In this document: piece after piece, positions 1,644 to 18,479 of the stretch
Position numbering within the stretch: the first letter of the stretch is position 1
Layout: every line of letters starts with the position of its first letter
From: a virus
Lineage: Duplodnaviria > Caudoviricetes
Virus record (IMG/VR): IMGVR_UViG_3300020045_002243
Coordinates: 1-25,550 of that record
DNA: 25,550 nucleotides
Strand: one strand, 5' to 3'
Notes under the pieces: generated by a model
What the model was told of the DNA's origin: nothing
Databases searched by the model: none
The model's input: the letters and a program-made list of their open reading frames with translations, nothing else
Program-made: the position numbers and the translations under genes

Positions 1644-2150
1644 ATGTCATGGAAAATATATAGTGCTCAAACAAGAGTGTTCAACGTGTTTAAGCGTTCA
1701 AAAGATAAAATATACAAGGAAGACGTAGAAGCGCTAAAACTATTGAACGAAGAGCTTTTAAATAGCCAAAAAAAGTATGTTAATGATAATATTCTATATG
1801 CTAAGTTACTTTGCTTTGTAATGTATAAAAATATTGAGCATTTTAAAGATATTAAAAAATGTATTCAACATATTCAAGAAAATGTTTTTAACGGAAGTTT
1901 ACAAGAACATATCGAAATTCTAAAACTTAACTTAAATAAAAATGATTTTGACGAATATTTAAATACATTAGGACTTTCTAAAAGTATAGAATTTACAGAT
2001 TCAGAAAAAGAAAGTGATTTAGCAATACTAACAAAAAACCAAAACGAGATAATTAATAAACTTAAAAAGTTTTGGAGTCACGAAAAAGTAAAGAAATCAT
2101 TTTACAACACAGCAAACGAATTTTTAAAAGATATTGATAATTATAAATAA
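1644..2150 (+). CDS. Hypothetical protein (168 aa)
   Basis: ORF track; its TAA stop (2148-2150) forms the AAC core at the cassette junction. Confidence 0.8.
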   Translation: MSWKIYSAQTRVFNVFKRSKDKIYKEDVEALKLLNEELLNSQKKYVNDNILYAKLLCFVMYKNIEHFKDIKKCIQHIQENVFNGSLQEHIEILKLNLNKNDFDEYLNTLGLSKSIEFTDSEKESDLAILTKNQNEIINKLKKFWSHEKVKKSFYNTANEFLKDIDNYK

Positions 2151-2288
2151 CGTTTCGTGGCTTTGTCGTCGTTATGGTGAATTGTCACAAATACCAAAAA
2201 AAATACATTAATCATTAAATTTAAAAAACTATGAATACAAATAAAGCTAAAGTGCCACAATGCGACAAAACCGCTGTTATAAGCCGTT
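2147..2288 (-). other. attC-like recombination site (Bacteroidota type)
   Basis: Minus strand reads ..GGCTTATAAC AGCGG TTTTGTCG CATTGTGG..(AT-rich loop)..CCATAACG A CGACAAAG CCACGAAAC GTTAT: AAC/GTT outer cores, paired inner arms, one extrahelical base; 134 bp between the outer ATAAC and GTTAT. Confidence 0.7.
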
Positions 2289-2452
2289 TATCTTCTGAAA
2301 ACGCATTGAACGCATTGAATGAATTATACGAAAATATGTCAAATCCAAATATAGTAGAACCGTTAAAGGAGTTATTAGAAAGACACGGTTATAAAGCTGG
2401 TTTTTGTGATGGTTTTCGGTCTGCTATTGAGTACGTTAAGAATGGCTTACAA
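2151..2452 (-). mobile_element. Solitary integron-like gene cassette (302 bp)
   Basis: AAC core at both ends (2149-2151, 2451-2453). GTTATAAGCCGTT (2276-2288) is complementary to AATGGCTTACAAC (2441-2453) at 11/13 positions, so circularisation would rebuild a fully extended attC. Confidence 0.65.
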
Positions 2453-2491
2453 CTAATTGCTAATAGCTATAAATGTATTATAATAACTTAA
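2231..2491 (+). CDS. Cassette-borne hypothetical protein (86 aa)
   Basis: ATG lies in the attC loop; N-terminal PQCDKTAVISR is encoded by the attC arm; the last ~13 codons lie beyond the cassette boundary. Confidence 0.7.
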   Translation: MNTNKAKVPQCDKTAVISRLSSENALNALNELYENMSNPNIVEPLKELLERHGYKAGFCDGFRSAIEYVKNGLQLIANSYKCIIIT

Positions 2492-3558: not shown

Positions 3559-3885
3559 ATGGAACATAAATTACAAATAAAACCTTTAAGCGTAAACGAT
3601 GCTTTTAAAGGGCGAAGATTTAGAACTGATAAGTATAATTCATTTATAAAAAATTGTTTATTAATGTTGCCTAAAAATATATCAATACCAGATAAATCAT
3701 TTATTAAGTTAGCAATTCAATTTGGATTTAGTAGTAAGGCAAGCGATATTGATAACTGTTGCAAATCTTTTATAGATTGTTTAGTTAAAAAGTACGGTGT
3801 TGATGACAAACATATTTACGAGTTGCACGTGTTTAAATCAATTGTTAAAAAAGGTGAAGAATTTATAAAATTTAAAATATACTAA
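3559..3885 (+). CDS. rusA: RusA-like Holliday junction resolvase
   Basis: KPLSVN N-terminus and SDIDNCCKSFIDCL..GVDDKHI (DxDN..K...D....DD) catalytic motif; ATG 3559 preferred over the TTG at 3520. Confidence 0.85.
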   Translation: MEHKLQIKPLSVNDAFKGRRFRTDKYNSFIKNCLLMLPKNISIPDKSFIKLAIQFGFSSKASDIDNCCKSFIDCLVKKYGVDDKHIYELHVFKSIVKKGEEFIKFKIY

Positions 3886-4160: not shown

Positions 4161-4535
4161 ATGAAAATACAAATTAAAAGACAAGAAGAATTTATTGAAG
4201 CTAAATATGCAACAATAGAAATAAATGAAAATAAATATAGATTATCTGAAACTATTGATGGAAGGTTGAAAGTAAATAAAACTTCGTTAGATGGAATGGA
4301 TAACTACATTAGAACATATCCATCTAACAATAATGAGATAGATATTAAAAAATATCGAGGAATTGCTTTTTTACAATTCAAAATGACGCATCGTATTAAT
4401 CAAGTTTTTGAAAGAAGAAAACTTATTGCGAAAGAAATATTAGAAAATGTAATACATCCAAATCAAATGTTATATGCTCAGGAAGAAATTGAGCAATTAG
4501 ATGAAATTTTGAAAGATTTTCTTTTTATAGGCTAA
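4161..4535 (+). CDS. Hypothetical protein (124 aa)
   Basis: ORF track. Confidence 0.7.
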   Translation: MKIQIKRQEEFIEAKYATIEINENKYRLSETIDGRLKVNKTSLDGMDNYIRTYPSNNNEIDIKKYRGIAFLQFKMTHRINQVFERRKLIAKEILENVIHPNQMLYAQEEIEQLDEILKDFLFIG

Positions 4536-4586
4536 TTTTTTAAGGCATTACTGTTAACTGTAATTACAAATTAAAAATACAAAAAA

Positions 4587-4850
4587 ATGGAAACAACAAA
4601 GTGGAGCGAAGATTTATCTAAAATTAAAAATCACACAATTTTAAACATAGTTATAAAAGGTGATTTTTGTAATGTTATGAAAGCATTTTACAAAAACGAA
4701 TATTTCTATATTATTGATACAGTAGTTCAATATCATTGGAATAGCATATCTCATTACTACATTGAAAATGAGTTTTGCAAATGTGATCCAAATAGAGACT
4801 TAGATACATCTACTTATTTAGTATGTAAAAAATGTAATATGAAACTATAG
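4587..4850 (+). CDS. Hypothetical protein with C-terminal CxC..CxxC (87 aa)
   Basis: ORF track. Confidence 0.7.
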   Translation: METTKWSEDLSKIKNHTILNIVIKGDFCNVMKAFYKNEYFYIIDTVVQYHWNSISHYYIENEFCKCDPNRDLDTSTYLVCKKCNMKL

Positions 4851-4871
4851 GCATTTATTTTAGTATTTATG

Positions 4872-4902
4872 ATAACTAATTTATAATAGCTATAAATACA
4901 TT
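4872..4902 (-). other. Empty attI-like site (second copy of the cassette target)
   Basis: AACTAATTtaTAATAGCTATAAAT (4874-4897) versus AACTAATTgcTAATAGCTATAAAT (2451-2474): 22/24 identical; intergenic. Confidence 0.5.
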
Positions 4903-4929
4903 GCAATAACTTAAAATAAACAAATAACC

Positions 4930-5043
4930 ATGACAACAATTATCTTTTTAATCCCGTTTGTAATCTTGTATTTACTTCAAGATACAATAACTGAATTTTT
5001 ATGCAAAGGAAAGTCTTTTGCTCCTAATGAAACAAAATGGTAA
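4930..5043 (+). CDS. Small membrane protein (37 aa)
   Basis: Manual translation MTTIIFLIPFVILYLLQD..ETKW*. Confidence 0.55.
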   Translation: MTTIIFLIPFVILYLLQDTITEFLCKGKSFAPNETKW

Positions 5044-5046
5044 TCT

Positions 5047-5253
5047 ATGAAAATATACGAAACGCTATTTAAAGACTCAGGATTGACTCAGGTTGATATA
5101 AGCAAGGAATTAAGTATGACTCAACAAAACGTGTCTAAAAAAAAGCAAAACATGCCTGCAATTAAAGCCTTGAGTATTGCAATGCAAAAATTAAATATTA
5201 ATTCGATAGAAGCACAAGAAAGTGGACTATCTGTAAAAATTGAAAGGTTATGA
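5047..5253 (+). CDS. XRE/Cro-like helix-turn-helix regulator
   Basis: GLTQVDISKELSMTQQNVS HTH signature. Confidence 0.8.
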   Translation: MKIYETLFKDSGLTQVDISKELSMTQQNVSKKKQNMPAIKALSIAMQKLNINSIEAQESGLSVKIERL

Positions 5254-7075: not shown

Positions 7076-7148
7076 GGGTAAGTAGCTCAGATGGTAGAGC
7101 AAAACCGTAAAGTCGCTTGCGTCATAGGTTCGAATCCTATCTTATCCA
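7076..7148 (+). tRNA. tRNA-like element / pseudo-tRNA, anticodon arm disrupted, identity undetermined
   Basis: Acceptor GGGTAAG/CTTATCC+A; D arm GCTC-AGATGGTA-GAGC; T arm ATAGG-TTCGAAT-CCTAT; anticodon arm AAACC-GTAAAGT-CGCTT pairs only 3/5; no encoded CCA after the discriminator. Confidence 0.75.
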
Positions 7149-7161
7149 CAAAATAAAATTT

Positions 7162-17242: not shown

Positions 17243-17279
17243 TTTATATTCATTCTTAATAAAAAATTTTATATGTTTG
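17242..17279 (+). promoter_or_regulatory. Fur-box-like palindrome (copy 2) plus -7 promoter element
   Basis: ATTTATATTCATTCTTAAT (17242-17260), then TATGTTTG (17272-17279). Confidence 0.5.
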
Positions 17280-17335
17280 TATAGTTGTTAAGATCGATTA
17301 AACGTATGAAGATATACGTTACCATTAAATAACCT

Positions 17336-17362
17336 AAAGCACCTTTAATCGGGTGCTTTTTT
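17336..17362 (+). terminator. Intrinsic terminator
   Basis: AAAGCACCT-TTAATC-GGGTGCTTT followed by Ts. Confidence 0.85.
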
Positions 17363-17375
17363 AATATATTATGTT

Positions 17376-17654
17376 ATGGATGTTTTAATTTTAGAAATTA
17401 TAATGTGGTCTACTTTATTGGCTTTTATAGTGTTTATTTTTACTTATAAATACGAAAACAAAAAATATGTAAATCACCAATTAGAATATGAAAAAAAACT
17501 AATTATTTACAACGAGATAATGAAGCTAACTAAAGATTTTGACAACGTAGTTTATAAATTAAGTTTATTAGCTAAAGACAGGAATTGGAAAGATTGGCAA
17601 GAATTATATAAAGAGCAAGTTAGAATAAGTGAAACAATTGAAAAATTAAAATAA
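17376..17654 (+). CDS. Membrane-anchored hypothetical protein (92 aa)
   Basis: N-terminal hydrophobic helix. Confidence 0.7.
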   Translation: MDVLILEIIMWSTLLAFIVFIFTYKYENKKYVNHQLEYEKKLIIYNEIMKLTKDFDNVVYKLSLLAKDRNWKDWQELYKEQVRISETIEKLK

Positions 17655-17656
17655 TT

Positions 17657-17971
17657 ATGAAAAACAAAACAGAAGATTTACTAAACAAAATAGCAATCAT
17701 AAGAAAAGACATGATTGAATATGTCAAATTATATGTATTAACAGGATTAAAAAATACAAATTTATTAGAGCATGATTTAAAAATTGCTTGGTACGATGAT
17801 GATATGGTAATTAGTTCTATTGTACAGATACATAGCGTTGACGAGGATGGTGATTTATTTGTGGTTTTTGATTATGGAGGAGGTAAGAAATTAGCAGAAG
17901 ATGTAGATGTAGAATTCCTGTCTTTTGAGGCTTTATGTATGCTTATTGCTTTTTACGAAGATGCTTTATAG
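17657..17971 (+). CDS. Acidic hypothetical protein (104 aa)
   Basis: ORF track. Confidence 0.75.
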   Translation: MKNKTEDLLNKIAIIRKDMIEYVKLYVLTGLKNTNLLEHDLKIAWYDDDMVISSIVQIHSVDEDGDLFVVFDYGGGKKLAEDVDVEFLSFEALCMLIAFYEDAL

Positions 17972-17981
17972 AATAAAAACA

Positions 17982-18083
17982 ATGAAAAAATGCAAACATA
18001 AATATGAACGTAAATACTCTTTTCCAAGAGTTAGAACAACTTTTAAATGTGTAACATGTGGTAAATTAAAAAAACGTAAATAA
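17982..18083 (+). CDS. Micro zinc-finger protein (33 aa)
   Basis: MKKCKHKYE..FKCVTCGKLKKRK*; CxH..CxxC. Confidence 0.55.
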   Translation: MKKCKHKYERKYSFPRVRTTFKCVTCGKLKKRK

Positions 18084-18091
18084 ATTGAATT

Positions 18092-18448
18092 ATGAAAAAA
18101 ATATTGATATTAATAATAATTTGCATCACTTTTGCTTCTTGTGAAAAAGATGTAGAAATTAAAAATAAAATTGAATATATTTATTTTAACGATACTATTG
18201 AAAAATCAAACACGCCTTACGATAATTTTAAAAAAGATATATATGTAGATTTTGATGTGTCTAAAGATTATAAAGAAAAAAAATATAGAGTAATCTGGTA
18301 TTTGTGGATTGATGGAGAAATAGCTGAAAGTAATTTAAAAACTTGGGGAGAATTAGTCGAGCCTAAAAACTTAAATAAATACAAAGCTAAAGTTAAAAGA
18401 ATTGAAAATGAAAGAATACCAAATCTTTTAAAATTTTGGAAAGAATAA
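18092..18448 (+). CDS. Lipoprotein (118 aa)
   Basis: MKK, hydrophobic core, FAS|C lipobox. Confidence 0.8.
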   Translation: MKKILILIIICITFASCEKDVEIKNKIEYIYFNDTIEKSNTPYDNFKKDIYVDFDVSKDYKEKKYRVIWYLWIDGEIAESNLKTWGELVEPKNLNKYKAKVKRIENERIPNLLKFWKE

Positions 18449-18479
18449 AATAAACCACAACACCACAACTACTATTTTT

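Follow-up and report, generated by a model that had tools for sequence, protein, structure and literature searches.

A second, diverged copy of a putative attI-type docking site in a Flavobacterium-type phage and its likely arrival with a cassette end

Introduction

When a phage genome contains a second, cassette-free copy of the sequence at which a gene cassette was inserted elsewhere in that genome, is this copy a docking site that is still empty or one that has already been used? This question is raised by an intergenic motif at positions 4872-4902 of a record of 25,550 bases from a freshwater-type bacterial virus, considered here in its entirety and referred to as the window. In a preliminary description of this DNA, the motif was taken to be an empty second copy of the target of a cassette inserted further upstream. 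It was also proposed that this insertion had not occurred at a random GTT, and that the phage carries several attI-like sites which together form an integrase-less, distributed integron relying on a recombinase borrowed from the host.

The window, with a completeness of ~75%, carries terminase and portal genes, and the G+C content of the region containing the motif is ~22%. We infer the host to be of the Flavobacterium type, because the site family described below occurs in a contig of Flavobacterium fluviatile, because a ribbon-helix-helix (RHH)-like gene linked to such sites is present in 10 Flavobacterium and two Polaribacter phage records, and because a short stretch at a promoter-like box at 4117 matches Flavobacterium phage 11b. 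The 4117 box resembles promoters of the Bacteroidota type. Elsewhere in the window, a tRNA gene called as Phe at 7076-7149 has an unusual anticodon, aaa, and may be degenerate or miscalled, while four short ORFs of low G+C content at 17250-18470, lying behind a promoter-like box and a terminator-like hairpin, break up the structural region; a scan of 17250-18470 for attC detected none.

Results

Two related sites lie on either side of a conserved phage module

The motif at 4872 and the sequence at which the upstream cassette ends are referred to as site 2 and site 1, respectively. They are direct repeats that lie 2423 bp apart and share the same 5-nt spacer. These sites and the genes around them are as follows.

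2451..2483, minus strand: site 1, the first attI-like docking site, filled; phage-type TAGC core, GTATTA block intact; 37.8 bits
2507..3388, plus strand: conserved ATPase-like gene, 293 aa, directly behind site 1, so labelled from Walker-type motifs
3559-3885: RusA-like gene, located with the ATPase-like gene between sites 1 and 2
4874..4906, minus strand: site 2, the second attI-like docking site; 14.6 bits; TATA at -9..-6 and TTTAT at -20..-16
4907..4929, plus strand: leader from site 2 to the next gene, read from alignments
4930..5043, plus strand: small ORF, 37 aa, behind site 2; no docking site precedes its orthologues in loci L001 and L012
5047..5253, plus strand: HTH-like gene, 68 aa (Pfam HTH_24, E 1.2e-4), 97% identical in L001 and L012

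Searches of Pfam and PHROG with the 293-aa ATPase-like protein returned no match.

Counted from the AAC, site 2 is identical to site 1 at 38 of 46 positions, and the similarity extends over 75 nt (72%) to the next start codon, at which both copies end. The identities counted in the preliminary description, namely 27/31 against a cassette-free reconstruction and 22/24 without it, were exact; when the unreconstructed 31-mers are compared, 26/31 positions are identical. A 24-nt pattern matched only 2451 and 4874 in the window, where 0.02 matches are expected. As this pattern was built from these same two copies, a weight matrix derived from other phages only offers a fairer test; over the window, this matrix scored 37.8 bits at 2451, 14.6 bits at 4874 and -2.6 bits at the next-best place.

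The G|TT core of site 2 lies on the minus strand, with the presumed crossover at 4876|4875. Site 2 carries three changes in the GTATTA block (plus strand 4898-4903), which is kept in 90 of 94 phage sites. The ATTTATA-N5-TATAAAT palindrome recognized previously is present, at 4879. A search of Rfam returned no match, and a scan for sigma-70 promoters gave counts at chance level (18 vs 22).

Site 1 is the end of a cassette array in an acquired module

Site 1 passes a test for an adjoining intact cassette, the components of which are the following.

2149-2278, plus strand: attC-like hairpin body, consisting of AAC, 5 nt, an arm, a long A/T loop, an arm, 1 nt and GTT
2151..2452, minus strand: gene cassette, 302 bp, from the stop codon of a 168-aa gene to site 1, with complementary boxes at 2276-2285 and 2444-2453
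2231..2491, plus strand: cassette gene, 86 aa, with five homologues of 72-75 aa

The hairpin body, which provides the start codon of the cassette gene, has an arm score of 12.6-13.6, with only one of 120 controls reaching 10. Both its R boxes and its arms pair, with spacers of 5 and 1 nt. Arm pairing is what separates attC from controls, the folding energy of the whole site being no better than that of shuffles (z about +1). The body at 2149-2278 is the only attC found in the window, and the test passed by site 1 is failed at 4874; the statement that no attC lies upstream of the second copy was thus correct. The five homologues of the 86-aa protein differ at the N-terminus and terminate where the cassette ends. 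The window's gene lacks that stop (2444-2491) and reads on for 13 codons into site 1.

The same slot was compared in 24 loci found via the ATPase-like gene, 23 of which could be scored. Site 1 is present in L001, L002, L004 and L011, in each case behind different cassettes, while the remaining scorable loci have no site, their flanking genes being separated by ~21 nt or less in six cases. In the window, L001, L002 and L004, the array begins at the stop codon of the upstream gene. The reconstructed empty allele of site 1 was not observed among these relatives; rather, relatives free of an array lack the site altogether, and the site is therefore considered an acquired module. In a tree of the ATPase-like protein, site-bearing rows fall on one side of a branch, although weakly (58/73).

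Comparable putative docking sites end cassette arrays in many phages

The motif search advocated in the preliminary description failed with the exact 24-nt pattern, which had no matches in viral contigs, but succeeded with a looser one, which identified 50 viral loci (43 distinct) and a single place in 185,579 prokaryote genomes, this being a prophage-like region of Flavobacterium fluviatile. A matrix scan returned 114 distinct sites, which include close kin and as such are not independent events. With nine sites left out on account of short flanks, 91 of the 105 evaluable copies adjoin an intact cassette. When an RHH-like gene served as anchor, an intact cassette was found at 51 of 56 evaluable sites and at none of 149 control sites; this count was drawn from the best 80 of 178 loci, from which 18 without the anchor, two duplicates and four with short flanks were dropped, and in which one row that was kept is mis-anchored. 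In a hand count, hairpins were upstream of the site and co-oriented in 74 instances, downstream in three and reversed in two, and related loci contained up to six attC within 3 kb.

Judging from the ORFs behind them, the sites precede lysis, packaging and replication genes. Across these many gene contexts the docking site is conserved, while the adjoining cassette varies. The view that the cassette next to site 1 had not entered at a random GTT is upheld by this conserved position at the end of arrays and by the register shared with the host sites considered below. Among the phage sites, 72 of 94 have a TAGC core. In the usual integron, the cassette gene reads from attI towards its attC. The phage cassettes are reversed relative to this polarity, the longest ORF lying on the AAC strand, facing the site, in 90 of 91.

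As to the number of sites per genome, 32 of 40 records matched one of the patterns, once in 30 of them, twice in one and three times in one complete genome; L002, L032 and L143 also carry two sites within a few kb. That a phage may hold several attI-like sites is thus true of several genomes but not of most, such that the term 'distributed' fits a minority. In L002, a second docking site (L002:1796-1906) is followed by only the first ~50 bases of an ATPase-like gene, i.e., the site was copied together with a gene stub.

In a set of sites found without use of that gene, the RHH-like gene, encoding ~60 aa, follows 30 of 48. The gene was sought in the window and not found. The protein (L026:2660-2839, alignment A1) presents a strand-helix-helix pattern, and an imperfect 19-bp palindrome immediately precedes its start codon. 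It is encoded in two of 401 sampled host genomes and in 12 cultured phage records. Comparison with PDB sequences gave no match. Because the profile match is weak (DUF6290, 12/17 members, below cut-off) and because all matches to the CopG/Arc fold have E values above 1, the RHH label is a lead only. The conserved 3' block of the sites may be an operator or an accessory site for this protein; at sites without the RHH-like gene, this block is nonetheless kept in 21 of 22. In the F. fluviatile region (L075, minus strand), ~22-bp direct repeats ending in AAC, at about 4283-4262 and 2795-2774, flank the array, the docking site and the RHH-like gene, with a third similar copy near 5050. These repeats are possibly a trace of movement of the module.

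A candidate host recombinase lies next to sites in register with those of the phages

In the genome of F. fluviatile, a gene encoding a 347-aa tyrosine recombinase (L156:1279-2322) is followed by a GTT site and then by the start of a cassette-like gene. Relatives of this recombinase were found in 102 of 201 sampled Flavobacterium genomes. In 26 of 30 host loci drawn from those 102 genomes, a conserved site lies 3' of the recombinase gene, the other four being without it. Six of these 26 sites have flanks too short for evaluation; of the remaining 20, nine adjoin an intact cassette with the same hairpin geometry as in the phages. Genes of these host cassettes are on the GTT strand in seven of nine cases.

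The comparison with a site beside a Flavobacterium recombinase gene, proposed in the preliminary description as one with attI, revealed a shared signature in register. At -20..-16 from G|TT, TTTRT is found in 23/26 host sites and 78/94 phage sites, as opposed to 1/208 attC and 0/179 controls. The TTTRT columns were used neither in picking the host sites nor in anchoring the first phage set; three other shared columns, used in choosing the host sites, were masked in the register comparison. An A at -1 is likewise present in 91/94 phage sites vs 2/208 attC. At -9..-6, 25 of 26 host sites have TATA. With a matrix built from host sites, mean scores were +23 for host sites, -16 for phage sites and -31 for controls. 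As phage sites score far below host sites, one enzyme may not serve both unaided. Site 2, with its TATA core, has a host-matrix score that tops those of all 94 phage sites, and the same core variant is found in L130, where the site is filled. Host attI-like regions (L163-L192, 60-150 nt past the recombinase gene) contain a palindrome that is repeated twice at fixed spacing, with letters that vary between genomes.

The host enzyme matches the integron integrase model TIGR02249 at positions 2-176 and 238-315, with 20 codons between the two, at 119.6 bits (cut-off 265). Its alignment with XerA contains no insert, and that with IntI4 (PDB 2a3v) breaks into two stretches, indicating that the host enzyme has no IntI-specific insert. 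In the accessible part of PMC4889954, an extra domain specific to IntI serves as a criterion for an integron integrase.

A search of the window contig (75% complete) with PF00589 detected no tyrosine recombinase, and tblastn with the host enzyme found nothing in the window or in the site-bearing loci. Similarly, 18 of 24 near-complete carriers of the site, as well as five of five further records, have no tyrosine recombinase. Yet 11 of 39 carrier records do encode one, two of these enzymes being 42% identical to that of the host. With most carriers lacking a recombinase and some phages having one, a carrier likely obtains the enzyme in trans, the source being either the host or a different phage. 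The portrayal of these phages as integrase-less thus probably applies to most of them, while the lender of the enzyme may be a phage rather than the host. Site-carrying records L200, L201 and L202 encode recombinases of 273-288 aa that are 38-42% identical to the host cassette recombinase; no docking site of the present type was found in the ~3.4-kb recombinase loci of these three records.

Site 2 is preceded by a likely cassette remnant

The region in front of site 2 contains two further features.

4587..4850, plus strand: ORF, 87 aa, chimeric, with a Cys-rich tail, ending 23 nt before the core
4860..4875, plus strand: likely leftover cassette end; 6.15 bits, 11/13 to the nearest real end

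As a cassette end, the 14 nt before the AAC (4860-4873) score 6.15 bits, compared to 4.62 bits for the true end at site 1. This value was reached by 2/216 window controls, by 21/1191 TAAC controls, real cassette ends being among them, and by 0.14-0.8% of shuffles, such that the overall chance rate of the signal is 0.1-1.8%. TAGTATT at -13 is found in 18 of 174 real cassette ends and in none of 216 controls. Furthermore, end-like flanks (3.5-13 bits) are also present at each of the 14 other sites that lack an intact cassette, and copies with neither a cassette nor an end-like flank number 0/105. An orphan end followed by a site is also seen in L032, L051, L240 and L243, the last being a decayed second copy like site 2.

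The Cys-rich tail of the 87-aa ORF is also found fused to a cassette gene family (P0002 vs P0003 and L194), and a search with P0002 yielded one locus, L194, with the unfused cassette gene. The distance from stop codon to core is at most 23 nt in 180 of 223 cassettes. From these sequence features, ORF 4587..4850 is likely the gene of an eroded cassette.

Neither a partner box nor an attC was found upstream of the end at 4860..4875. A GTT at 4553 was considered as the partner box of the lost cassette and dropped, its score being at background, with 136/245 controls as high. Between two orphan ORFs, 4545-4567 forms a short imperfect palindrome around GTTAAC; its left half has a weak cassette-end score (2.5 bits, 3/216 controls) and its right half does not resemble a partner box. 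Searches for relatives of ORFs 4587-4850 and 4161-4535 gave no context for site 2. As a homology search found no intact version of the site-2 cassette, the relic reading rests on the 14-nt signal.

With regard to origin, the nearest relative of site 2 is the window's own site 1, at 38/46; the best of 114 others score 36 and 34, the margin for an origin from site 1 (38/46 vs 36/46) being small. Site 2 is one of the most diverged copies seen. The first part of the leader at 4907..4929 resembles the tail of site 1, while the remainder resembles the native leader of the small ORF in L012. In L001 and L012, the promoter region is retained together with the small ORF and the HTH gene, but other genes occupy this slot and it has no site. 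Homologues of the small ORF in L033:60-200 and L052:375-450 are followed by cassette-end-like sequence, in L033 without an AAC core; cassette relics may be scattered through such genomes.

Taken together, the motif at 4872 is probably a diverged second copy of an array-ending site, likely of the attI type and likely transplanted with a cassette end, and as such would be a worn site that was once used, not a fresh and empty one. Of the earlier term 'empty', the lack of an intact cassette is borne out; the adjoining cassette-end-like 14-mer points to previous use.

Alternative explanations of site 2

It is unlikely that site 2 is a fully working spare docking site, never filled or cleanly vacated, and one of several kept in early regions. 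A spare site would agree with the lack of an attC upstream of 4874, with a core closer to the host consensus than that of any of the 94 phage sites, with the filled site of L130 having the same TATA variant, and with the complete genome in which three sites occur. Arguing against this are the flank at 4860-4873, which scores as a cassette end where no copy among 105 lacks both cassette and end-like flank, the three changes in a block kept in 90/94 sites, and the closest relatives, which have no site at this slot.

Very improbable, too, is the notion of a duplicated regulatory leader, be it an operator for an HTH or RHH-like protein or a translation leader, to which the adjacent cassettes would be secondary. 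Both copies do end at a start codon, site 2 does contain a palindrome at 4879, and in relatives the 3' block corresponds to an imperfect palindrome before the RHH-like gene, and so may well be an operator. Still, L001 and L012 lack the palindrome found at site 2, although their HTH genes are 97% identical to that of the window, and this palindrome is missing at site 1 and appears at only one of 114 sites (L130), which is filled. Consequently, an operator for the nearby HTH protein, mentioned in the preliminary description as what could overturn its proposal, finds no favor here. As for an RHH-like protein, the block is kept at 21/22 sites that lack the RHH gene, a search of the window found no such gene, and in either case the AAC is fixed and adjoins cassette ends.

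Were the site the surviving arm of a broken attC, it would be the dead end of an array formed by insertions at secondary GTT sequences and would have no docking role. Off-target insertion is known (bioRxiv 10.1101/2022.09.11.507474, in its accessible text), the site opens with AAC and a 5-nt spacer as hairpins do, array-free relatives have no site, and arrays start where the preceding gene has its native stop codon, resembling a secondary-site junction. This reading is nevertheless highly doubtful, given that the sites bear a host signature absent from attC (TTTRT, 78/94 vs 1/208; A at -1, 91/94 vs 2/208) and that the site stays conserved over a wide range of gene contexts in which the cassettes beside it differ.

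Chance similarity in A/T-rich DNA has a virtually negligible probability and is already largely ruled out by the pattern, matrix and simulation results since, even with ~22% G+C in the region and a best simulated window of 14.0 bits, near the 14.6 bits of site 2, the comparison with simulated windows, called for in the preliminary description, gave 0/200 reaching that score, and since the 38/46 identity to site 1 occurs on the same strand and between genes, with a start codon and a cassette-end-like flank in matching register.

Discussion

A proposed mechanism

From sequence comparisons, the ideas of a docking site and of a borrowed enzyme appear to hold up. In the mechanism envisaged, an Xer-like recombinase acting in trans, coming from the host chromosome or from a co-infecting phage, would bind the site as double-stranded DNA and recombine it at G|TT with an incoming cassette circle, whose hairpin would take part as a folded single strand. 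New cassettes would enter beside the site, pushing older ones away. Because the phage cassette genes face the site, each hairpin would travel ahead of its gene. Given this reversal, the cassette genes would be expressed from phage promoters lying upstream, for which the 4117 box is a candidate.

Site 2, as a presumably worn copy that came with a cassette end, likely entered a variable slot behind an early promoter via recombination at short A/T-rich leader matches. After arrival, its cassette would have lost its hairpin, following which the site would have drifted. Since the core of site 2 still fits the host consensus, some activity is possible. Were both sites active, the enzyme could remove the intervening 2423 bp and with it the ATPase-like and RusA-like genes. 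In the accessible text of PMC12901181, a gene lying between two attI1 sites is excised at over 97%, which illustrates the potential of a directly repeated pair; it is therefore predicted that decay of either copy may be favored.

Comparison with known systems

The system is integron-like and not a canonical integron, because the candidate host recombinase lacks the IntI insert and because the phage cassette genes face the opposite way. What survives of the earlier integron label is the integron-like docking site: no integrase gene is adjacent, and the IntI insert is absent from the candidate host enzyme, whose service to the phages is presumed. Site 1 does correspond to the attI of an integron; at site 2, the core is accompanied by no more than a likely cassette remnant.

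As far as described in the accessible part of PMC12901181, the phage site resembles attI1 of class 1 integrons (L and R boxes, DR1/DR2) in being the fixed, non-hairpin end of a variable array, in its G|TT core, in having conserved letters further upstream, and in that the cassette's own end pairs with bases after the core. Unlike attI1, it has no adjacent intI, shows no likeness to the L box and often has an RHH-like gene behind it; the phage genes face the site (90/91), and the candidate enzyme is without the IntI insert. The same source, in that part, also describes unusual cassettes with a truncated attC or delta-attI, which are similar in being eroded cassettes or extra attI fragments in arrays. 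Those cases belong to mobile integrons with IntI1, whereas here the copies, 2423 bp apart, flank conserved phage genes.

The CALINs of phages (Qi et al., 2023, PMC9892861) are alike in being attC-bounded cassettes in phage genomes without intI. A CALIN comprises two or more attC without intI, while the window has one attC and not a cluster. In the available sections of that report, one of two tested attC sites of Polaribacter phage P12002L was recombined by IntI1, and a CALIN in a Shewanella prophage is accompanied by its own attI; the same sections report neither a conserved docking site specific to phages nor copies dispersed in lytic-type Bacteroidota phages, nor a recombinase devoid of the insert. 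P12002S, the namesake of P12002L, carries the RHH-like gene.

With attG secondary sites and isolated cassettes (Loot et al., bioRxiv 10.1101/2022.09.11.507474, accessible portion), the site-1 array shares a left junction at a native stop codon. Its right end, unlike attG, is a conserved and reused site, not a scattered genomic target. The Flavobacterium chromosomal recombinase-plus-array locus has the same hairpin geometry and an in-register docking signature. It differs in that the site follows the recombinase gene, the core is TATA (25/26) and the genes are mostly on the GTT strand (7/9), phage sites having mostly TAGC (72/94) along with the GTATTA block. In the open-access literature, to which the search was confined, no published account of this docking-site system was found; nor did the open-access literature yield a description of the chromosomal locus.

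Implications for phage gene capture

A further reading, which is improbable yet deserves mention, is that both copies are live. Flavobacterium phages would then operate integrase-free capture platforms whose portable docking sites are of two types, one phage-type (TAGC core with an RHH-bound block) and one host-type (TATA core, used directly by the insert-less recombinase). In that case the enzyme could also excise or swap the 2423-bp ATPase-RusA module, given the direct orientation of the two repeats and their shared 5-nt spacer. Were this so, site-specific recombination would shuffle core replication modules in addition to accessory cassettes.

For the reading favored here, in which site 2 is a worn and once-used copy, the locus offers a natural pair of phage-type and host-type cores in one genome and shows how spare sites may arise and decay. 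The system moreover provides defined substrates with which to ask if hairpin sites can be processed by a tyrosine recombinase that lacks the IntI insert, a capacity argued against in the accessible part of PMC4889954. In the available text of PMC9892861 and PMC8618304, attC clusters of phages have so far been explained as captured or off-target leftovers. A docking site that is conserved, nearly always filled, host-like and able to appear in changing contexts points instead to phages that, though mostly without the enzyme themselves, capture genes actively and at a defined target.
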